From the NCBI GenBank assembly GCA_028281385.1, contig JANQJY010000049.1:507-64506 (forward strand): a stretch of 64,000 bases of DNA, written 5' to 3'. Under the pieces are notes generated by a model. It had not been told where the DNA came from. It saw nothing but the letters and a program-made list of their open reading frames with translations, and made no database searches. This DNA comes from Rickettsiales bacterium. Its GTDB lineage: Bacteria > Pseudomonadota > Alphaproteobacteria > Rickettsiales > UBA3002. Positions within the stretch are counted from its first letter, which is position 1, and every line of letters begins with the position of its first letter. Positions 44,933-54,930 of the stretch are shown here, in pieces. A program made the position numbers and the translations under genes.

Positions 44933-44962
44933 GTTAATCCTAACGTTTGTAATACCCAAATC

Positions 44963-45008
44963 TGGCGTCCCCGAGAGGATTCGAACCTCCGACCCTCAGA
45001 TTAGGAAT
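44963..45008 (-). pseudogene. 3' half of the host tRNA-Arg(CCT), split by integration (att junction)
   Basis: Minus strand ATTCCTAATCTGAGGGTCGGAGGTTCGAATCCTCTCGGGGACGCCA: anticodon loop, T-arm, 3' acceptor strand and CCA. Confidence 0.95.
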
Positions 45009-45127
45009 GGCCAGCCGGTAGCTATACACGCTTATAGCGTCTTTTTAAATCCCTCGCAATACCAGGCGGTTTAAAAGATAAGGTTGGCTGCGGGTTTTAC
45101 CCGATTATAGGGCCTTTTTAACTCTCG

Positions 45128-45147
45128 ACCTTGCTATCGCCTTGCTA
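45128..45147 (+). repeat. Integrase arm-type repeat, left copy
   Basis: ACCTTGCTATCGCCTTGCTA, identical to 54619-54638; made of two CCTTGCTA units. Confidence 0.8.
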
Positions 45148-45208
45148 CCGAGGTTGTTGAAGAAATAGCAGGTGGTAAGATTCCACCCACTACTCTTTCT
45201 GTGCAGGC

Positions 45209-45352
45209 TTATTTCTTTTTGTTTGGCCGCTGCGTTAATGCCGAGGCTGCAGCTGTTTTTGCTGCCTTACTGCTCTTAGGGTTACGCAACACCTTTGATG
45301 CTGCTGTACCAGCTTTCTTGCCTGTTTTTTCGCAACTACGTTTTTTAGTCAT
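45209..45352 (-). CDS. Small Lys/Ala-rich basic protein (47 aa), not in the ORF track
   Basis: Hand translation MTKKRSCEKTGKKAGTAASKVLRNPKSSKAAKTAAASALTQRPNKKK; AAGGAG RBS and ATGA overlap with the upstream stop. Confidence 0.8.
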   Translation of the reverse strand: MTKKRSCEKTGKKAGTAASKVLRNPKSSKAAKTAAASALTQRPNKKK

Positions 45353-45621
45353 GATAGTGCTCCTTCCTTAATGATATATTCTTGCCACGGAATTGCGGCA
45401 GGATGAATGTGTGACAGGAATTGGACTATATCCTTCCTGCCATAATATCTGGGACGCCCGCAGCTTTCTGCCATTAGAATGATGGGCATGTACCCAAATA
45501 CAGCTTGCAGTGATAAGATCATATCTTCTGCCTGGCGGTTATTATTAAGGATATGCGGTTTAACCACTGCAATGGCAAACGTCACTCCTTGTTCACGTAT
45601 AACGGCACCTTGTATTCTCAT
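45349..45621 (-). CDS. Hypothetical protein (90 aa)
   Basis: GAGGAG RBS before the ATG at 45621; MRIQGAVIREQGVTFAIAVVK...YYGRKDIVQFL...IPW. Confidence 0.8.
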   Translation of the reverse strand: MRIQGAVIREQGVTFAIAVVKPHILNNNRQAEDMILSLQAVFGYMPIILMAESCGRPRYYGRKDIVQFLSHIHPAAIPWQEYIIKEGALS

Positions 45622-45632
45622 GCTATCCTCCT

Positions 45633-45956
45633 CTATCTCGAGCCACATGGCGGGTTAAACTGAGTACGTAAATGTTGTTCAATTCGTAGCCGGTCTTGCT
45701 GGTTCGGAACGTAGATCACGGCAACACCGAGCTGCTTATAGCCCTGTGCCTTCCATTGCGACTTTCTATCGTGATTTTCTACCCTTGACCGAACGGCTTG
45801 AGATTCACCAACATCAAGAACAATCTCCCAATTCGACGAATTTCGCCCTAAAATGACATACACACCGCTTTGATCGCGGAGGTGTCCAGTGGATAAGTAT
45901 GGTCCCTCACATTTTATGCCAGCAAGGGTAATGGCATCTGACAATATCGTATTCAC
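45633..45956 (-). CDS. Small GIY-YIG-like domain protein
   Basis: SGVYVILG...VLDVGES..VRSRVENH...IEQHLR..FNPPC; start uncertain (GTG 45956 after AAGGA). Confidence 0.7.
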   Translation of the reverse strand: MNTILSDAITLAGIKCEGPYLSTGHLRDQSGVYVILGRNSSNWEIVLDVGESQAVRSRVENHDRKSQWKAQGYKQLGVAVIYVPNQQDRLRIEQHLRTQFNPPCGSR

Positions 45957-46096
45957 TACGCTATCCTTTTCTGAAATTAACAGAGGCAAAATTAACTTTA
46001 CCTTCAGACAAGGATTGCTAGAATACACGTGCTAAGGTGAGCGTTCCTTGCGAAGGCTTACAATGGGGAATGTGGCCTCGTCCCATTCCCCATAAT

Positions 46097-46633
46097 CTAA
46101 ATATCGTGTTTGATCATAATTTCCCTCCTAATTTCTGCTGCTTCGTAAGATACACCAAAATCATCGCTGATTTCTTCTATGTCATGATACTCTCGCACCA
46201 ATTTTGTTGGCATAAGTAGAAAGCTCGCGAACGTGTTTGCCTGCCATTCAGGATCTTTATATGCAGGCACTCGATCTGTTGTTGCCCTGTTTAATGCTAG
46301 CCGTTCATCTGAATGAAGAATTAAGTGACCTATTTCATGCGTTAAAGTGTAACGATCACGGCCATTGCCAGCGCATGCCCCTTCGTACACATCTTCTCGT
46401 AGGCATATAGTGGGTTCTCCTACTATTTTTCTTCCTTCCTCTCCACGCATCTCCCGTTCAGTTAGTATGCGAAGGTGATAGCCTTCTATAACCTCTGGCA
46501 ATACAAACTCTGCAATCTCAACAATCGGCAATCGTGGTTTCTCGCCTACAGGAAGCATTGAACGAAATCGCTCAGTGATCCCTGCTATCTTTGCACGACT
46601 AAGAGGCAGTGCCTCTAGTGCTAATTTACTCAT
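46097..46633 (-). CDS. ImmA/IrrE-family Zn metallo-endopeptidase
   Basis: RDRYTLTHEIGH (HExxH), EWQANTFASFLLMP, FGVSYEAA. Confidence 0.93.
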   Translation of the reverse strand: MSKLALEALPLSRAKIAGITERFRSMLPVGEKPRLPIVEIAEFVLPEVIEGYHLRILTEREMRGEEGRKIVGEPTICLREDVYEGACAGNGRDRYTLTHEIGHLILHSDERLALNRATTDRVPAYKDPEWQANTFASFLLMPTKLVREYHDIEEISDDFGVSYEAAEIRREIMIKHDI

Positions 46634-46988
46634 TTTCCTTTTCCTCCCCTCCCAGAATCGTCTTTATCGCATCAAGCTGTTCTGCATTTAATTTATCAAA
46701 CCCACGCGCGAGGGCTGCTATGCACTCTCCATCGTCAAGAGGATTGTGTTTAAGCATCGCCTCGTTTTTCGACATTAAGGCCTTATCTTCGAGTTTTACT
46801 TGCTGATCTTTTGATAATTTATAATGTTTCGTTATTTTCTTTATCAAGTCATCTGGGATGTCGCGCTTACCTGTTTCAATTGCGGATAGGTAAGATGATG
46901 AAATGTTTGCTGCCTCAGCCATATCCTTTAGAAGAATACCCTCTTCTAATCGCAACCTTCGCAGCTCTTTTCCAAATTCAGTTAACAT
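46626..46988 (-). CDS. XRE-family HTH repressor
   Basis: FGKELRRLR...LKDMAEAANISSSYLSAIETGKR; GGAGG RBS before the ATG at 46988; overlaps the peptidase start. Confidence 0.93.
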   Translation of the reverse strand: MLTEFGKELRRLRLEEGILLKDMAEAANISSSYLSAIETGKRDIPDDLIKKITKHYKLSKDQQVKLEDKALMSKNEAMLKHNPLDDGECIAALARGFDKLNAEQLDAIKTILGGEEKENE

Positions 46989-47148
46989 GGCAGTACCTCC
47001 CTGATTTTGGATTACAGTAACACAAGCGCCACGGAAGATCAACAAAGATTGAAAAGAAATCAACAAATTTGTGGATCGCAAATTGTTTTCCTTGCTTTCT
47101 CAGAGAGATACGCAATAATTCTTCTTAGAAACAGAAGATTAGAACCCG

Positions 47149-48330
47149 ATGCCGACCATTAAAATTACCAAGCGTGAAGTAGATGCGATACCGTATGCCG
47201 AATACGACAAGCAGCAATTCTATTGGGATACCGAGCTAAAGGGCTTTGGCCTGCGTGTCGGGCATAAATCCAAAACCTTTATCGTCCAGCGCGACATAAA
47301 TGGCAAAACCAAACGCACCACCATTGGTCGCTTTGACCCATGGACCGTCGAACAAGCGCGCACCGAAGCGCGGGAAATATTAATACAGATGGGCAAGGGC
47401 ATCGATATTGCCGCAGAAAAGCGCAAAGCTGCCGCCCAGTCGATCACGCTGACAGAAGCATGGGCGTTGCATAAAGAAGCGATGAAACGGAAAAATGCGT
47501 CGCCCAACACCATTGCCGATTATGACCGCGCAGTGAACACCCATCTGGCTAAATGGAAGAACCGCAACCTTGTCGATATTACGCGTGCAGAGGTAAAAGA
47601 AATGCACAGCACCATTGGCAAAACAGGTGGCTACGGCGCAAACGGTATTATGCGTTGCTTCCGTGCCATCTATAACACCGCGATGAAGGACAATGAGTTT
47701 TTGCCACCCAACCCCTGCATCGCCATCCAGTGGTTTAAGGAATATCGCCGGCAGGAACCTATCTCTGATAATAAACTGAAAGATTGGTACAAGCTGGTGC
47801 AAACCATCCCTAACACTGCACGGCGTGACTACCACCTGTTTGTAATTTTTACTGGACTACGCCGTACCGATGCCTGCACCATCAAATGGGCAGACATTGA
47901 TATGAAGGCCGGAACATTGCATCGGCCTAATCCGAAGGGCGGTAAGGAACGTGCCTTTACCATTCCACTACCCGATGTGTGTTTAGAGATATTGGAGCGG
48001 AGAAAGGAAGAAAACGCCATTCTCTACGGTAAGCGCTGTCCGTGGGTATTCGCTACCACAAATCGCAATGGTGAAGTGATTGCCATGCGTGATCCCAAAG
48101 AAACCAAGCGTGGTCTGCCATCGTCACACCGATTGCGCGATACCTATACCACAGCCTGCAACAGCGCTGGCTTGTCGGCTTATGATATTGAGGTCCTGAC
48201 CAACCATCGTCCCGCCAACAACAGTGTAACGGCTGGCTATATCAGCCAAAGCATTGACCATTTGCGAAAACAGCAGCAGAAAGTAGCCGATTATTTGAAG
48301 GGGAAAATGGGCTGGAATAAAACGGTATAA
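47149..48330 (+). CDS. Tyrosine recombinase/integrase with N-terminal arm-binding domain
   Basis: WDTELKGFGLRV arm domain; TGLRR, K(GG), HRLRDTY, LTNH, Y catalytic residues. Confidence 0.96.
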   Translation: MPTIKITKREVDAIPYAEYDKQQFYWDTELKGFGLRVGHKSKTFIVQRDINGKTKRTTIGRFDPWTVEQARTEAREILIQMGKGIDIAAEKRKAAAQSITLTEAWALHKEAMKRKNASPNTIADYDRAVNTHLAKWKNRNLVDITRAEVKEMHSTIGKTGGYGANGIMRCFRAIYNTAMKDNEFLPPNPCIAIQWFKEYRRQEPISDNKLKDWYKLVQTIPNTARRDYHLFVIFTGLRRTDACTIKWADIDMKAGTLHRPNPKGGKERAFTIPLPDVCLEILERRKEENAILYGKRCPWVFATTNRNGEVIAMRDPKETKRGLPSSHRLRDTYTTACNSAGLSAYDIEVLTNHRPANNSVTAGYISQSIDHLRKQQQKVADYLKGKMGWNKTV

Positions 48331-48673
48331 AAAGACGCTATAACAGTTTAGTAACATGCTGTAATATTGAAATTATTATGCTCTATTGCGCTTGACTTCT
48401 CTTGAGTTTATTGGCATATAGATAGGGTTGGTAGAGCGATCCACCATTAGGTGTGAGGTGACCATTTGCCCGGTGCAGTCCGGGGGCCAACCGGTGGGGA
48501 TTGAAGAGCGTGGGAAATCCCCTTAAAGCAAACGGCACGTGCCATTCTTAGTGATGGTCAGACCCGCCGCCGACACAGTTTTGTTTTATTAAACAATGCT
48601 AGTGTCGGTGCTTCTCTCAATTAATATGTCTGAATGAACTCCTGATGCTAGCTCTAACTATAAGGAGTTAGTA

Positions 48674-48961
48674 ATGTCTAAGATTAATGACAACATGGCT
48701 CATGTCATCGAGCAGTGTATAGATAATGCACTTAAAAAACTTTTCTCTCATGATTTTGCATACCCGGAATACTTTGACACTAAACGGGCTGCTGCCTACC
48801 TCGGCTTGAGCAAGCAACGGTTGGAAATATGGCGAGTTTCTGGAGATGGCCCCCCATACACTAAACTAGCCCAAGCCGTTCGCTACAAACGTAGCGACCT
48901 CGATGTGTTTATGGCCAAGCACCTCCGTAACAACACAACTGAGGGAGGGGCCAATGTCTAG
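48674..48961 (+). CDS. AlpA/excisionase-like HTH protein
   Basis: FDTKRAAAYLGLSKQRLEIWRVSGDGPPYTKL..AVRYKRSDLD; TAAGGAG RBS. Confidence 0.9.
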   Translation: MSKINDNMAHVIEQCIDNALKKLFSHDFAYPEYFDTKRAAAYLGLSKQRLEIWRVSGDGPPYTKLAQAVRYKRSDLDVFMAKHLRNNTTEGGANV

Positions 48962-51170
48962 AGATATTATTGCCGATGCAAAAGCATACACCGAAGCCGG
49001 ACTCTCTGTTTTTCCTCTACGAGAACGCAGTAAAGAACCGTTTGGCAAATGGAAAGAGTATGATGCTAAGGCCGATGATTACGGGAGCTTTAATAGCGCT
49101 AGTAACATCGGCGTTAAATTAGGTGAGCCAAGTGGCGGCTTAATTGATATCGATTGTGACTGGGAGACTTTTAGTCTGCTGGCAAGTAAGTTTTTAGCAC
49201 ATTTGCCCAGTTTTGGTCGTGCATCCTCTCGCCACAGCCATCGTGTGTTTTTTGCCAATGAATCGGATAATTTTAAAACGGTGCAGTTAAAGCTCCCGTC
49301 TGTATGTAAAGATGACCCGCGGTTGCCTACCGAACACACTCTATGTGTGGCAGAATTTCGGGGGACAGGCGCTTACACCATGTTTCCGCGCTCGGTGCAT
49401 CCTAACGGGGAAGAGCTAGCGTGGGAAACACCAGATGGTGCAATGCCGGAAATCCCCACTTTTGCATATGACGCTATTTTAAAGCATGTTCGTGTCTTGG
49501 CGTTTTTATCGGTTATACTGCAATGCTATCCGGGAAAAGGATCGCGTGATGAAATGCACTTTAAATTGGCTGGTGTTTTAGCGCGCGCAGGTGCCCCTTC
49601 CGATGAGATTGATCGCATTAACCTGACATTGGCTAAATTAGCGAAAGACGACGAAGCAGAAATGCGCGCTAAGGGACAAGATGCCGTTGCTCGCGTAAAT
49701 GCGGGTGAGCCTGTGGCAAGTATGGCCTCGCTAATTGAAACGTTAGGCCTGCCTGATGCCTGCATCGCCTGCTTTAATGGCTGGCTTGGTATTTCGGGAT
49801 CACATGACGATAAGGTGCGTGCACACCCCTCTATGCCATATCCTACTGCCGAACAATTTCGCCAAAGCAAATATCCCGATGCCATGCACCATAACGGCAG
49901 TTATCTGGTCTATGATGGCGCAAGTTATCGGGAGTATGAGGATGATACCGTTAGGTCGACCCTGTATAAATATCTTGCGAAGGCCGTCTATGAGCATGAC
50001 GGGGTCCTTGTACCGTACAATCCGAATGCAGCAAGGGTGAGTAATGTGATTGATTCGTTTAAAGGCATTATGCATCGCTCGACCGGATTATACCAGCCGC
50101 CATGCTGGCTCAAGAGCATGGAAGGTCTACCGCCTGCAAATGAGATCGTCGCCTGCCAGAATGGCTTGCTACATTTGCCTACAGGTGAATTGTTACCGCC
50201 AACACCTAACTTTTTTACACGTAATGCGCTGGGATTTGATTATGACCCTGGTGCACCGCTACCAAAAAAGTTTAGAGCGTTTCTTGATGACATATGGCCT
50301 AACGACAGCGATTCGATAGGCGTCTTGCAGGAAATGTTTGGTTATCTGCTGGTAGCAGATACATCGCAGCAGAAGATTTTTCTGATCGTTGGCCCCCCTA
50401 GATCGGGCAAAGGCACGTTAATTCGTGTTCTGACGAAACTTGTGGGCGAGCATAACACCGTGGCACCCAGTCTAAACTCGCTAAGTAGCGATTTTGGGAT
50501 GCAAGGGCTGATCGGTAAGCTGATGGCAACGGTGAGCGATGTTCGCATTAGCAACAAAGCAAATGCCACAGCTATATCGGAAAATCTACTGCGCATCTCC
50601 GGCGAAGATAAGGTCGAGGTAAATCGCAAATATAAGAACGCATGGGAGGGGTATCTGAAAGTGCGTTTTGTGATTATGACCAACGAAGTCCCACAATTCG
50701 CCGATAACAGTGGTGCATTAGCCAAGCGGTTTGTACCGTTAGTGATGCGCCATAGCTTTTTCGGTAAAGAAAACCCAAACCTGACCAATGAGCTGCTTGA
50801 AGAATTGCCTGGAATCCTGAACTGGGCAATCGAGGGGTGGCGGCGATTAAATGAGCGTGGGCATTTTGTGGTGCCTGAGTCTGCCACTGAATTAGTCGAT
50901 AGTTTGACGACACTGGCCTCGCCTATATCGGCATTTGTGGCTGAATGCTGCGAACAGGGAAGCGGCTATACTGTCCGAAAAGAGGCTTTATATGAGATTT
51001 GGTGTAAATGGTGTATAACAGAAGGCGATATGCGTCCCGGCACATCAGCCACCTTCGGTCGCAATTTGATGTCGCTGGGCGGTATCGACACCGACCGCGA
51101 AACGGGTGGGGAAAGAAAGAACCTCTACACCGGCATTAAACTGAAGGATAATCCTTACGATGCGTCTTAA
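48954..51170 (+). CDS. Prim-Pol primase fused to a D5/P4-family SF3 helicase
   Basis: N-terminal VFPL...NIGVKLG...DIDCD...PRSVHPNG; C-terminal GPPRSGKGT Walker A, ISGED, MTNEVP, GILNWAIEG; start at ATG 48954. Confidence 0.93.
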   Translation: MSRDIIADAKAYTEAGLSVFPLRERSKEPFGKWKEYDAKADDYGSFNSASNIGVKLGEPSGGLIDIDCDWETFSLLASKFLAHLPSFGRASSRHSHRVFFANESDNFKTVQLKLPSVCKDDPRLPTEHTLCVAEFRGTGAYTMFPRSVHPNGEELAWETPDGAMPEIPTFAYDAILKHVRVLAFLSVILQCYPGKGSRDEMHFKLAGVLARAGAPSDEIDRINLTLAKLAKDDEAEMRAKGQDAVARVNAGEPVASMASLIETLGLPDACIACFNGWLGISGSHDDKVRAHPSMPYPTAEQFRQSKYPDAMHHNGSYLVYDGASYREYEDDTVRSTLYKYLAKAVYEHDGVLVPYNPNAARVSNVIDSFKGIMHRSTGLYQPPCWLKSMEGLPPANEIVACQNGLLHLPTGELLPPTPNFFTRNALGFDYDPGAPLPKKFRAFLDDIWPNDSDSIGVLQEMFGYLLVADTSQQKIFLIVGPPRSGKGTLIRVLTKLVGEHNTVAPSLNSLSSDFGMQGLIGKLMATVSDVRISNKANATAISENLLRISGEDKVEVNRKYKNAWEGYLKVRFVIMTNEVPQFADNSGALAKRFVPLVMRHSFFGKENPNLTNELLEELPGILNWAIEGWRRLNERGHFVVPESATELVDSLTTLASPISAFVAECCEQGSGYTVRKEALYEIWCKWCITEGDMRPGTSATFGRNLMSLGGIDTDRETGGERKNLYTGIKLKDNPYDAS

Positions 51171-51176
51171 TTACCC

Positions 51177-51282
51177 GTCCTAGTTGTCTTGGTAAAATGC
51201 TTATTGTTTCGATTGCCAATTATGAATGTAATATTCGGTAAAAAGCGAGAGTAGAATAAGAAATTACCGGGACAACTAGGAC
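51177..51282. repeat. 19-bp inverted repeat after the primase gene (candidate element origin)
   Basis: GTCCTAGTTGTCTTGGTAA (51177-51195) / TTACCGGGACAACTAGGAC (51264-51282), 2 mismatches, AT-rich spacer. Confidence 0.6.
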
Positions 51283-51736
51283 CCCTCCTTCTTGCAATTC
51301 CAAAGAATGTGATGAATGTGATAATTTTCTTATCGCGCACGGGCGCGATGAGGCGATTTAGAATTGAAACGATTGAAATTTTTATCCTTATGCATACGCG
51401 CATGTGAAGAACATGAAGATTTCTTCATCACGCGCGGGATGCACGTCTTGTTTTTTTCTACCATCCTGCCCACCCCCGCATCTTCGCGTTGACACTCTCC
51501 GATATGAGCGTATCTTTCTAGCTAGAGCTATCGAAGGTAGCTTTGGGGCTTCAAACCTCATCTGGGCGGCTGACATCAGCCGTAATGATGTCGCCTTTTC
51601 GACCTTATGGCCGGGAGGCGACAATGTATGTCCAATGCCTCGCGGCTAAAGATTGTCGCGATCATCCCAGATGATTTTGAACTCCCGGCTACCAGTCTTA
51701 GGGCTGGTGGTCGCTTGTTTAGATACGGAGAAAAGA

Positions 51737-52543
51737 ATGATCACGCTACAGGAAATACTGAATCTAAAAACTGACCGATTTCACAACGCTAAAGTAAAGC
51801 TAGTGCGACACAAAGACAGTCGCGCCGAATACCGCGATCTGATACGCAACAGGTCGGGACTCCTGGAATATCAACGAGAACAGGCCAAGGCGGTTTTTAA
51901 GGGGTGTAGCTACATTATCGCCTTTGTTGGGCTTGAGAGACGCCGCTCTGTCCTTTTCGGCGTGTTTTCTGTCGATGGCGTGACCCAACGCGACGGTATG
52001 TATTATTATGACCTGACCCATCTGCCTGAATGCGCTGACCTTGAGAACCGCATCATAATTGATTGGGGTGGTAGTGCACAGGCATGGCACCAATGGTATG
52101 ATGCGCAATCGAAAGAGGTGGTTGAGATATTACCAGCGGGCTACCTCGGCAACTTTCCTGGGCTGCTGGATTTTGTGCTGGATTACGATGAATTGAAGCG
52201 GCTGATCGACAATCCCGAAGCGAACCATGATTGGAAGCATCACCTCTCTGCTGTTAACGGTATCTACCTGATCCTCGATACCCAAACCGGCATGCAGTAT
52301 ATCGGTTCTGCCAACGGTAAAGAAGGCATCTGGCAGCGCTGGGGCGAGTATGCAGCCAGCAAACATGGTGGCAATAAAGAGTTAATAGCATCGCTGGAGA
52401 CTGACCCAAACTATCAGCGACACTTCCGCTATTCGATCCTGCAAACACTTCCCAGTAACATTACAAAAACCGAAATTGATAAGATCGAAAGCCTTTATAA
52501 AAAGAAATTTGGTTCCAAGGCACACGGGCTGAATAGGAATTAA
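51737..52543 (+). CDS. GIY-YIG nuclease family protein
   Basis: C-terminal GIYLILD...QYIGSA...IWQRW..Y...E..YK...LNRN; GGAG RBS before the ATG at 51737. Confidence 0.9.
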   Translation: MITLQEILNLKTDRFHNAKVKLVRHKDSRAEYRDLIRNRSGLLEYQREQAKAVFKGCSYIIAFVGLERRRSVLFGVFSVDGVTQRDGMYYYDLTHLPECADLENRIIIDWGGSAQAWHQWYDAQSKEVVEILPAGYLGNFPGLLDFVLDYDELKRLIDNPEANHDWKHHLSAVNGIYLILDTQTGMQYIGSANGKEGIWQRWGEYAASKHGGNKELIASLETDPNYQRHFRYSILQTLPSNITKTEIDKIESLYKKKFGSKAHGLNRN

Positions 52544-52563
52544 TAAGCTCTGGTAGAACTTAT

Positions 52564-52884
52564 TTAATAAGTGCCTGTAGCTTTGCGCGTATCTATCTCT
52601 TCTGCAGCTATTTTAATTGCCTCATCAAAAACACTGTCTTCAATTGTATCGCCATCAAGTAGTGCATCAACAATTAAGCTCGCAAGTGATTCGCTTGTGA
52701 TGGCTCGGTCATGGTCTAAAAAATAATCACCCGCAGCTTTACGCGCATTTATCTCTTCTGCAGCTATCTCAATAGCAAAACTAGCATCTTTGTTTTTCAT
52801 CATATCAGCTTCTATAATTCTTTTAATTATCAAACTGGCCAGATTTTCGCTAGAAAGAGGCTTATTTTCTTGATCTTTACTCAT
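52564..52884 (-). CDS. Putative immunity protein made of two tandem ~50-aa repeats
   Basis: SENLASLI...AIEIAAEEINARKAAGDY / SESLASLI...AIKIAAEEIDTRKATGTY; acidic; overlaps the toxin stop. Confidence 0.7.
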   Translation of the reverse strand: MSKDQENKPLSSENLASLIIKRIIEADMMKNKDASFAIEIAAEEINARKAAGDYFLDHDRAITSESLASLIVDALLDGDTIEDSVFDEAIKIAAEEIDTRKATGTY

Positions 52885-54439
52885 AGTTCTTTCTCTGTTT
52901 TGGAAATTTTATTTTTCTATACGGCACGCCCTTAACATCTAGATCCACTGCGGGTTCTCCACTTTTTGATTTGGGGCGTTTGCCTACCCAATCACCATTT
53001 GGCAAACGTTTTCCTTCACCTGGATAATTTTTAGGGGTATCTGGTTTGCCTCTTCCGAACTTGTCATATAGTTCGTCTGCTGCTTTCTGGCCACCTTTTT
53101 CCTCTCGATATTCAGGACGCCTTCCCGGTCTTCCAATTGGTTTTCCACCCGGAATTATAACATCTTTTGGGTTTGGTGGTTTTCGGAAAATACTCCCCAC
53201 TGCAACACCAATCCGCGCGATGCCTCCGACAACGATTCGTCCTAAGGCAGCGACACCGCCGATCAGTGCTTCCGGATAAACCGGTTCAGCGCGGCCAGAT
53301 GGGTCGACCTCGCTCGGCAGGCGCGGTAGCTCTGTCAGTGGTTCAGCGTAACAGCGACAATTGAATTCTTCGCCCGGATGGCCGGTGGACGGCGGCTCAT
53401 CCCACGCAAAAATTCTATCGTCATTCTCAGCATGACTGCCGCGGACTTTTTCATCATCCATCGACCGCCAGACATAATGCGTCACATCTGCTTCTCTTTG
53501 ACGTATCTCACTCAGCTTACCGTTAAAGTGCAGCGCCAGCATTTCAACACGGTCGGGAATGGTCACATCCTGCCAAGTCTGTAACGCATCTTGCATATGG
53601 TCCACTATTTGCTCACTGTTCCTACCTTGCCTGACGAGTTTATTTAGCTCTTTGTCGATAAATCTCCTTGTGCCGTTCTCGATGATATCAACCGCCAGAT
53701 CGGTAAATGCATCGCTAGCTTCCGGCATGACTTCCGATTCGGAGACAATCGATTTATTCCCTAGTAACTGCCCTTGTATTTCGGCATTGATTTGCTGAAT
53801 TTCCTCGGCGATGCGTCTGGCATTTTCTTTCAGAGGAAAGGCGATCTCGGGCAGCAGTTCTTCCGTCGTCATCTGGTCAAAACGCTGACGGATCGGTTGG
53901 ACAATATAATCGGGCGTGTGAATGTCTGCTGTAGAGATGTTCAGGCTATTTAAAAGAGTTGCCTGCGCTTTTCGTCTGCGTTTGGCTTTATCGCGCAGCA
54001 ATTCGTTATCCGTATCGGGAAGCGAGTTATGGAGAATTTCCCACAGCGCATCTTTCAGTTGCTGCTTTGCCAGTACGGTATCACCCTGGCGTTTTGCCTC
54101 AACATACGCATGTATATTGGCATAAAAATCGGTTGTTTCATCGACCAGCGCAGAATCTTCGTAATATAAAAACGCAATCGCCAATCGTTCATTGAGCAAC
54201 AAATCATCCCAGATCGCGCCATACAACACCGTTTCTAGTTGGCCGTCATCGCTATCCAGTTCCTGTTTATACTGCTGCTTCTCAGTCGTTTTAGACAAGT
54301 GCGTGCTGTGCGGCAGAAAACTGATGATTAGTTCATCACGCATCCGGTGGTAGGTTTGTATATCGTGTAATGATGTGCTGGGCTTAAGCTTGCGGGCCTC
54401 TGTCCGTAATTCCCGTATTTGTGTAACGTCATATCTCAT
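52877..54439 (-). CDS. MuF (phage head morphogenesis, SPP1 gp7-like) protein with C-terminal toxin-like extension
   Basis: MuF core YVWRSMDDEKVRGSH...HPGEEFNCRC (~53340-53485), Gly-rich hydrophobic linker, ~100-aa basic tip; start at ATG 54439 or TTG 54466. Confidence 0.85.
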   Translation of the reverse strand: MRYDVTQIRELRTEARKLKPSTSLHDIQTYHRMRDELIISFLPHSTHLSKTTEKQQYKQELDSDDGQLETVLYGAIWDDLLLNERLAIAFLYYEDSALVDETTDFYANIHAYVEAKRQGDTVLAKQQLKDALWEILHNSLPDTDNELLRDKAKRRRKAQATLLNSLNISTADIHTPDYIVQPIRQRFDQMTTEELLPEIAFPLKENARRIAEEIQQINAEIQGQLLGNKSIVSESEVMPEASDAFTDLAVDIIENGTRRFIDKELNKLVRQGRNSEQIVDHMQDALQTWQDVTIPDRVEMLALHFNGKLSEIRQREADVTHYVWRSMDDEKVRGSHAENDDRIFAWDEPPSTGHPGEEFNCRCYAEPLTELPRLPSEVDPSGRAEPVYPEALIGGVAALGRIVVGGIARIGVAVGSIFRKPPNPKDVIIPGGKPIGRPGRRPEYREEKGGQKAADELYDKFGRGKPDTPKNYPGEGKRLPNGDWVGKRPKSKSGEPAVDLDVKGVPYRKIKFPKQRKNYE

Positions 54440-54525
54440 GAACGAGAGGATACATTGGAGTTGCAACGCTCGGAAGGGGCGGAATGTGACTTTTGGGGAT
54501 TTTTATTAAAAGATACGCGTGAAGC

Positions 54526-54602
54526 TGGTGGTCCCGGCGGGATTCGAACCCACGGCTTCCAGATTAGGAATCTGGCACTCTATCCAGCTGAGTTACGGGA
54601 CC
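54526..54602 (-). tRNA. tRNA-Arg(CCT), element-borne complete copy
   Basis: GGTCCCGTAACTCAGCTGGATAGAGTGCCAGATTCCTAATCTGGAAGCCGTGGGTTCGAATCCCGCCGGGACCACCA: all four stems pair, CCA encoded. Confidence 0.95.
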
Positions 54603-54618
54603 AGTTTGTTGCTTCTCT

Positions 54619-54638
54619 ACCTTGCTATCGCCTTGCTA
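54619..54638 (+). repeat. Integrase arm-type repeat, right copy
   Basis: ACCTTGCTATCGCCTTGCTA, identical to 45128-45147. Confidence 0.8.
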
Positions 54639-54710
54639 TTCCCATTTTTGCGTTTTTTATACTCTTGATTCCTAACCTACATCAAACAGTTCTGCGGCCC
54701 CAACCCTGGC

Positions 54711-54750
54711 ATTAGGAATCTGATGCTCTATCCTGCTGAGCTACGGGGAC
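54711..54750 (-). pseudogene. 5' half of the host tRNA-Arg(CCT), split by integration (att junction)
   Basis: Minus strand GTCCCCGTAGCTCAGCAGGATAGAGCATCAGATTCCTAAT; its GTCCCCG and TCAGA strands pair with CGGGGAC and TCTGA of the half at 44963-45008. Confidence 0.95.
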
Positions 54751-54930
54751 GTGATCTTTCCGTAATTTCCTCAAGATAATCAGCTATAGCCACATCTGCC
54801 AACCAATTTAACAGGCGATTGGCTGTGTTTTGTATAATGCATGGTTTCTGTTGCGTGATTGTGAATTTCTTATGTATGTTGCAAATACATAATTATTATG
54901 CGGTAAAAGAAAGAGCATGAGGTCATTACC

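Follow-up and report, generated by a model that had tools for sequence, protein, structure and literature searches.

The MuF toxin-immunity locus

The stretch of DNA analyzed in this study, referred to as the window, comprises 64,000 nt of contig JANQJY010000049.1 from a Rickettsiales bacterium (assembly GCA_028281385.1), and coordinates given without a contig or locus label refer to it. It contains a gene for a predicted polymorphic toxin with the MuF domain of phage head proteins, which is overlapped by a small acidic open reading frame (ORF), and this pair lies within an island of 9.7 kb (45009-54710), the insertion of which has split the native tRNA-Arg(CCT) gene at its anticodon loop. The pair consists of the following features.

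52877..54439, minus strand: MuF polymorphic toxin gene, 520 amino acids (aa) from the ATG at 54439, with a helical body, a MuF core, a pre-toxin motif and linker, and a toxin tip
53348..53659, minus strand: Phage_Mu_F domain, residues 261-364 (Pfam PF04233, E = 6.9e-15, above the curated cutoff)
53180..53323, minus strand: pre-toxin region, residues 373-420, with a DPPIExVYPE-type motif, a Gly-rich amphipathic helix and K-x-F-K/R; the divergence of homologues begins past it
52877..53179, minus strand: C-terminal toxin tip, residues 421-520 plus the stop codon; a predicted alpha/beta domain without a curated family
52564..52884, minus strand: predicted cognate immunity gene, 106 aa, acidic, two tandem units of ~50 aa

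The original prediction, made from the DNA letters and ORF translations, had described a long helical N terminus, a MuF core, a PVYPE motif, a Gly-rich linker, a basic tip, and an overlapping acidic gene, and each of these was located at the coordinates listed above. The core motif is read directly from the protein as GHPG at residue 353 and NCRC at residue 360, and PVYPE stands at residue 386 with the Gly-rich stretch after it. The last 100 residues have an isoelectric point (pI) of 9.95 and include 25 Lys and Arg residues; the immunity ORF has a pI of 4.37 and overlaps the stop codon of the MuF gene by 8 nt. An alternative TTG start at 54466 would lengthen the MuF protein by 9 aa. The proposed membership in Phage_Mu_F is borne out by the Pfam match, and the protein is also matched by the NCBIfam model phageSPP1_gp7 (TIGR01641, 7e-14) and by PHROG head morphogenesis families (best 3.5e-26).

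In the AlphaFold2 model, which was built with 16 relatives, helices extend over residues 5 to 316 and are followed by a beta core (321 to 367), a linker helix (393 to 415), and a separate C-terminal domain (443 to 511). The linker helix is amphipathic and Gly rich and is located between low-confidence stretches, and PVYPE falls within a poorly ordered stretch. A search of this model against the predicted viral structures of BFVD gave 15 fold matches at E<=1e-3, every named one of which is a phage minor capsid or head morphogenesis protein, several others being nameless; no structural match to the full-length model was found in the PDB. As modeled, the MuF body shows the fold of phage minor head proteins.

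C-terminal polymorphism of the MuF family

A word-indexed homologue search with the MuF protein returned 23 proteins, and 16 sequences were aligned. The body is 41-55% identical to that of the 15 homologues in this alignment, in which conservation runs through the DPPIExVYPE-type motif, the linker helix, and K-x-F-K/R and then gives way to at least five unrelated tip classes, one of which is Colicin_E5. The alignment shows homologues that evidently recombine differing toxin tips behind a conserved pre-toxin motif and linker. The full-length relatives all come from records of Rickettsiales or from metagenome-assembled genomes of Alphaproteobacteria. Ten of 300 other genomes in the order contain the long N-terminal domain, and of 24 genomes from the family to which the host belongs none has it, a distribution that is consistent with import on the island.

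The toxin tip

A search of 1.84 billion representative proteins with the tip only gave 344 clusters (50% identity) at E<=1e-3, 85 of them at E<=1e-10. The match is invariably at the extreme C terminus, in carriers that are 59 to 1853 aa long; among 10 long carriers that were scanned, four have RHS repeats and one each has eCIS_core, PT-HINT, PrsW, Phage_portal, MuF, or TPR. No Pfam or NCBIfam model matches the tip. To judge from the distribution of these matches, the tip belongs to a toxin domain that is widespread at C termini, those of other polymorphic-toxin families included, and that would be defined here, together with its ~50-aa immunity unit, as a domain without a name.

The model of the tip (predicted local distance difference test score [pLDDT] of 91.5, 38 sequences) consists of one helix and a four- to five-stranded sheet. 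Gly29, Gly54, Gly66, and Arg68 (tip numbering) are invariant and Arg25 and Asp79 are near-invariant, other positions also being conserved, and the tip alignment contains no conserved histidine. Two candidate assignments were rejected. Ntox37, an Atlas lead (0.87), is described as an all-beta domain with a His motif, which the tip lacks, and the designer PPR (pentatricopeptide repeat) proteins that alone appeared in a profile search of PDB sequences, with a match over one helix, were taken as spurious.

The immunity gene

The 106-aa immunity protein is an internal tandem duplication in which 20 of 46 aligned residues are identical. A direct word-indexed search with it found one homologue, which consists of a single 62-aa unit. 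Behind the same tip at locus L006 come two genes of one unit each, and an orphan MuF fragment lies after them. A hidden Markov model (HMM) of the unit was built from five units and scanned wherever the tip profile matches in the order. Ten of 300 other genomes in the order carry the tip, and in six of these (seven loci) the immunity unit is encoded directly behind it, as one or two units. The unit is missing from the four remaining genomes, in which the tip runs into a contig end, is broken, is matched only weakly, or, in G098, is intact. The unit HMM found nothing at the five MuF loci that bear other tips. Most tip carriers in the order have short MuF bodies; thus, the immunity unit tracks the tip and not the body.

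The predicted complex of the tip with the immunity protein has an ipSAE score of 0.71, versus 0.23 for the best of three controls; three runs have at least 97% of contacts in common, and the pLDDT of the partner is at least 89. In calibration, the mark used for this score was passed by 58 of 80 solved complexes and by 2 of 110 mismatched pairs, and it is only a rough guide here, since our own alignments were used. The predicted interface includes Gly66, Arg68, and Asp79 of the tip, which supports a model in which the small acidic gene product covers the conserved face of the tip. On the strength of its position and of this model, the 106-aa ORF is the predicted cognate immunity gene. The proposal that the pair is a polymorphic toxin with its immunity gene is therefore upheld by three results, i.e., the varying C termini of the homologues, the covariation of the immunity unit with the tip, and a complex model that passes its controls.

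The island and its class

The other features of the island and its boundaries are as follows.

44957..45008, minus strand: left boundary of the island, formed by the displaced 3' half of the native tRNA-Arg(CCT), with the core ATTCCTAAT at 45000-45008
45123..45147 and 54614..54638, no strand: 25-nt repeat, 24/25 identical, with two 8-mers per copy
45349..47081, minus strand: left-arm operon with a gene for an XRE helix-turn-helix (HTH) protein (46626-47081), a gene for an ImmA/IrrE M78 peptidase (46097-46633), and small genes of no assigned function (45633-46028 and 45349-45648)
47149..48330, plus strand: tyrosine integrase with an arm-DNA-binding domain (PF13356; PF00589, 1.3e-10)
48674..48961, plus strand: AlpA-like HTH_17 regulator or excisionase (PF12728, 2.9e-8; PHROG excisionase/regulator)
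48903..51170, plus strand: replicase with Prim-Pol, D5_N, and DUF5906 (Pfam; PF19263, 2.8e-17)
51653..52543, plus strand: UzuA of the Uzume anti-phage defense, GIY-YIG (PADLOC PDLC03973, E = 4.4e-93, positions 2-278 of 278; Pfam GIY-YIG)
54526..54602, minus strand: island-borne complete tRNA-Arg(CCT) (ARAGORN; Rfam 69.5 bits), an allele that differs from that of the host
54711..54750, minus strand: right boundary of the island, formed by the 5' half of the native tRNA-Arg(CCT), with the core at 54711-54719

The two tRNA halves have the 9-nt core ATTCCTAAT in common and, when joined, give the tRNA-Arg(CCT) of three related genera. The 25-nt repeats, which border the core at each side, may be integrase arm sites. 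The split tRNA is not rebuilt by the island; its replacement, 108 nt inside the right end, is nearest the allele of another genome of the order (G005). On the same strand, 86 nt separate the island-borne tRNA from the start of the MuF gene downstream.

Pfam, PHROG, and profile scans of the island ORFs found no head, portal, terminase, or tail family. A decayed prophage that has lost its head module except for MuF is a very improbable origin of the locus, since the boundaries are exact, with a 9-nt core in a split tRNA, the integrase, regulator, and primase are intact, structural-gene remnants are absent from the scanned ORFs, and related islands have the same backbone. The locus thus stands, as had been proposed, as a precisely bounded integrative island without head genes.

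The integrase (PF00589), regulator (PF12728), and primase (PF19263) occur in the order int-alpA-prim. The PICMI (phage-inducible chromosomal minimalist island) model, as described in PMC10803314, requires the co-localization of an integrase (PF00589), an AlpA regulator (PF05930 or PF12728), and a primase (PF13148 or PF19263), all three of which the island contains. The likeness extends to the absence of capsid-remodeling and packaging genes and to cargo located after the primase, a slot that the same description presents as a defense hotspot and that recalls the defense hotspots of P4-like satellites. On the other hand, the island lies in a tRNA-Arg(CCT) of an alphaproteobacterium, at an anticodon-loop site, whereas the PICMIs of that description are located at fis in Vibrionaceae; it is 9.7 kb long versus ~6 kb, and it contains an extra XRE/ImmA operon and its own tRNA. 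The phage-inducible chromosomal islands (PICIs) of SatelliteFinder have at least four of five components (integrase, regulator, primase-replicase, capsid morphogenesis, and small terminase) according to PMC10085698; the island has three of the five and is outside this definition. No scanned island ORF belongs to a capsid-morphogenesis or small-terminase family, small ORFs of no assigned family remaining. The view of the island as a satellite therefore holds in form, through the int-AlpA-primase triad, whereas helper, induction, transduction, and packaging, which that view implies, found no support in the data.

Twenty-eight of 300 other genomes in the order have a related primase, and 13 of 15 such loci that were fetched contain a tRNA gene in the stretch. 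The locus with the closest integrase (L119; G106, contig C14, 5910-15556), which is 37% identical, carries a cyclase and a phospholipase of the cyclic oligonucleotide-based antiphage signaling system (CBASS) behind the primase. By its gene content, the backbone is that of a recurrent small tRNA-targeting island with putative conflict cargo.

Location of MuF genes in the order

The neighbors of the five other full-length family members are as follows.

L001 (759-12192), 11.4-kb island at tRNA-Lys: C5 methylase, HNH nuclease, resolvase, integrase, and two HTH_17 genes, without a primase; the MuF family gene and a small downstream ORF lie at the att end, and there are no head genes
L002: aminotransferase and propionyl-CoA carboxylase
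L003: mutS, with an orphan MuF fragment after the MuF gene
L004: Fic
L005: ABC/HlyD pair

Four of these five loci are thus among housekeeping genes, so an island is not the usual home of the family, and tblastn detected no GTA-type (gene transfer agent) head genes at any of them, although its positive controls matched. Orphan cassettes that start at the junction were found at L003, L006, L155, and the second MuF locus of the host genome.

Across the order, PF04233 matches at 113 places in 79 of 300 other genomes. These 79 genomes were searched for two large-terminase families, and ~9.5 kb on each side of 100 MuF loci, many of which are on short contigs, were searched by tblastn with GTA head proteins. 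Twelve places lie within 8 kb of a Terminase_6N gene, 11 of these within 4 kb and on the same strand, and all 12 are taken as ordinary head modules; two more are near a Terminase_6C-like match, and none in the 79 genomes is near a TerL_ATPase gene. About 95 of the 113 places had no terminase or GTA head gene nearby in this screen, which covered two large-terminase families and GTA head proteins. This contrasts with the 87% of muf genes that were near a portal or terminase in the survey of Jamet et al. (2017), which assigns the toxins mainly to Firmicutes (PMC5576092).

Possible carriers of the toxin

We consider that the pair has a somewhat better than even chance of being a polymorphic toxin-immunity module that is the accessory cargo of a capsid-less island and is loaded into the capsids of another element. 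The pair lies beside the Uzume gene, a short way downstream of the primase, on an int/AlpA/primase island that brings its own replacement tRNA. MuF proteins work at the portal within the capsid and exit together with the DNA, and the island has no head genes; for this reason, the toxin would have to be loaded into a foreign capsid. If the island is a PICMI-like satellite, this would be the capsid of a helper phage; otherwise, it would be that of a GTA of the cell. It would then enter the next cell along with the DNA, where recipients without the immunity gene would be harmed and carriers of the island would be protected. A helper phage would be the conventional candidate for the carrier, and by loading into its capsids the island may arm virions.

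Several results weigh against this reading. No SPP1- or Mu-type portal was detected in the host's own assembly, and no helper was found there. A pattern-limited search of 2.9 million IMG/VR contigs, with the tip as a single sequence, gave no relative of the MuF body or the tip. The original prediction expected the same body with swapped tips in related elements, an expectation that found no support: none of the 15 related-primase loci carries a MuF gene, four of the five family loci are those among housekeeping genes, and the fifth is the primase-less island L001. Structure comparison gave no convincing match of the tip to a BECR-fold or other known RNase toxin: Foldseek against the PDB returned nothing at E<=1e-3, and the wide VIA comparison gave only unconvincing matches, i.e., a de novo design (best Z of 4.8), a teneurin C terminus (4.6), a CdiA-CT chain (4.1), and glyoxalase/bleomycin-resistance proteins (~3.5-4). 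Finally, the defense-hotspot position would fit an intracellular role as well.

Such a role, in which the pair is an addiction module of the island or an abortive-infection or decoy defense and is never exported, appears unlikely to us; in one example of it, the MuF body would bind the portal of an invading phage and release or activate the toxin. The location beside Uzume, in a post-primase slot that related islands and known satellites use for defense, the overlap of the two genes in the manner of toxin-antitoxin pairs, and the failure to find capsid genes on the island or a helper all favor it. However, delivered toxins are typified by tip swapping behind a conserved junction, by orphan cassettes, and by tips that also occur in Rhs, eCIS, PT-HINT, and portal proteins, a virion-protein body of ~370 residues that is kept at 41-55% identity would not be needed by a mere scaffold, and neither protein has a PADLOC match.

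A GTA as a possible carrier

The second possible carrier of the exported toxin, which was outside the account of the original prediction, is the cell's GTA. The assembly is 95.7% complete in 120 contigs, and the only PF04860 portal and the only HK97 capsid detected in it belong to a stretched GTA-type cluster on contig C8, along with GTA_TIM. This cluster, which encodes a portal, an S78 protease, an HK97 capsid, a connector, and head-completion and tail-completion proteins, is the sole capsid system detected, and portals 58-62% identical to that of C8 are present in each of the five genomes with full-length MuF relatives. Three of the 100 MuF loci have the MuF gene inside a GTA head-tail cluster, and in one more the distance to a GTA gene is 5.5 kb.

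G076 (L154, contig C2, 4448-12105): portal, 187-aa ORF, MuF, protease, and capsid
G218 (L155, contig C36, 150-7519): portal, protease, capsid, MuF toxin, 90-aa ORF, and three orphan cassettes
G044: MuF between the head-completion and tail-completion genes
G051: MuF 5.5 kb from the tail-completion gene

Those of G076 and G218 are complete MuF toxin-immunity loci. The MuF protein of G076 has a portion of the long N-terminal domain in common with the family. The three cassettes of G218 all begin with the DPPIEPVYP-linker module that the window protein contains, and one of the cassette tips also occurs in full-length family members.

MuF toxins would, according to this alternative, be loaded at the GTA portal and make the particles kin-discriminating injectors, and the island would merely spread the cassette. 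We regard it as a live alternative to a helper phage, albeit a doubtful one, and we attach similar doubt to its wider form, in which the MuF toxins of this order of small-genome alphaproteobacteria have become uncoupled from phages and are GTA cargo, with cassettes that spread on small islands and sometimes lie inside the GTA head cluster. In its favor are the sole detected portal and capsid, the related portals in all five genomes, the four linked loci, and the ~95 of 113 places at which no terminase or GTA head gene was found nearby. Against it, by a rough estimate, 1.5 to 2.5 of 100 loci placed at random in a 2-Mb genome would be expected to have a GTA gene no farther than 10 kb away, and the clusters accept insertions at many junctions, so that the four linked cases are only mildly above chance. 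Six MuF-bearing genomes gave no match to the PF04860 portal, the 12 places near Terminase_6N belong to ordinary terminase-linked head modules, and we know of no MuF protein in RcGTA, the GTA of Rhodobacter capsulatus.

The C8 cluster (L084) is itself interrupted by a pentapeptide-repeat gene between the portal and protease genes and by an RTX-repeat gene between the protease and capsid genes. The sole terminase ORF recognized in it is a 181-aa Terminase_6C ORF, and searches of the genome for Terminase_6N, TerL_ATPase, and TerL_nuclease were negative. We do not take these missing matches as a sign of GTA decay, since 58 of the 79 MuF-bearing relatives also lack PF03237 and the Terminase_6C ORF is present.

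Relation to known toxin systems

MuF toxins and the idea of their delivery by phage capsids have already been published by Zhang et al. (2012; PMC3482391) and Jamet et al. (2017; PMC5576092). The toxins of these reports resemble the window pair in the Phage_Mu_F domain, the extension by a toxin domain that other polymorphic-toxin families also have, the small (<150 aa) downstream immunity ORF, and the C-terminal polymorphism, but they adjoin genes for portal, terminase, and capsid in temperate phages or phage remnants, whereas the window pair lies in a head-less island. The window protein is also alphaproteobacterial and has a 316-residue helical body, and its tip and immunity protein are without curated models. 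At the level of titles and abstracts, our literature search found no link of MuF toxins to satellites or GTAs and no described toxin cargo of GTAs, and the supplementary tables of PMC5576092 may hold island-borne cases.

Loci of the contact-dependent inhibition (CDI) and Rhs type share the conserved pre-toxin junction, the variable pairs of C-terminal toxin and immunity gene, and, in relatives of the window protein, orphan cassettes. They differ in that the trafficking part is here a virion head protein rather than a secretion-system substrate, and the window locus has no orphan cassette. The host genome shares with RcGTA-type GTAs the cluster of portal, S78 protease, HK97 capsid, connector, and completion genes; a link of such clusters to MuF would rest on the three loci of relatives in which the MuF gene is embedded and on the one in which it lies nearby.

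MuF toxins have been defined as phage-borne and tied to the packaging module, whereas here they are found on a head-less satellite-like island and, across the order, mostly as orphan chromosomal cassettes. The toxin gene is thereby separated from the machine that must carry its protein, and the question becomes into which capsid the protein is loaded. With a helper phage as the carrier, satellites would arm virions that they do not encode; with a GTA as the carrier, GTAs would have a selfish, weapon-like function, which would bear on the puzzle of their maintenance.

Other features of the island and the host genome

In the left-arm operon, the ImmA/IrrE peptidase is capP-like (8e-20), and the small genes encode a 131-aa protein with weak PDC-S14 and RelA_SpoT-like matches and a 99-aa protein of phrog_23950. 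The operon may be a second, damage-regulated conflict module. A weak, subthreshold match to sRNA-Xcc1 (51609-51698, plus strand, 26.6 bits, E = 0.49) lies across the start of uzuA. Over 52300-54800, a promoter scan gave four promoter-like sites versus 3.6 expected, which is uninformative, and a terminator scan gave none.

In contigs from three DNA runs of one study, which is labeled as a coral metagenome, the island is in place. These contigs break at the tRNA repeats, and they contain no clear circle or empty site. The tRNA joints seen in them were rejected, because their letters differ and they look like tRNAs of other organisms; one weak joint (45000->54712, depth of 2.1, 30 letters on the shorter side) is indistinguishable from the intact tRNA of a relative. 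In the likely source run, the island (44975-54740) forms its own 9766-nt contig at a depth of 14.9, and the left and right flanks have depths of 13 and 9.8-11.9, respectively. This excess might hint at extra copies of the island, for which contig depths are too coarse a measure.

The host genome contains a second MuF toxin, a 348-aa protein with a Colicin_E5-type tip, on contig C105 (L081, 7077-9087), directly after tRNA-Lys(UUU) and queA-tgt and with no phage genes nearby. Two ORFs of 81 and 80 aa come after it, and next is an orphan cassette, which starts with a repeat of the GHPG...NCRC junction (63 nt, 83% identical). Colicin E5 cleaves queuosine-bearing tRNAs, and the position of a MuF toxin with this type of tip beside queuosine genes may be more than a coincidence.

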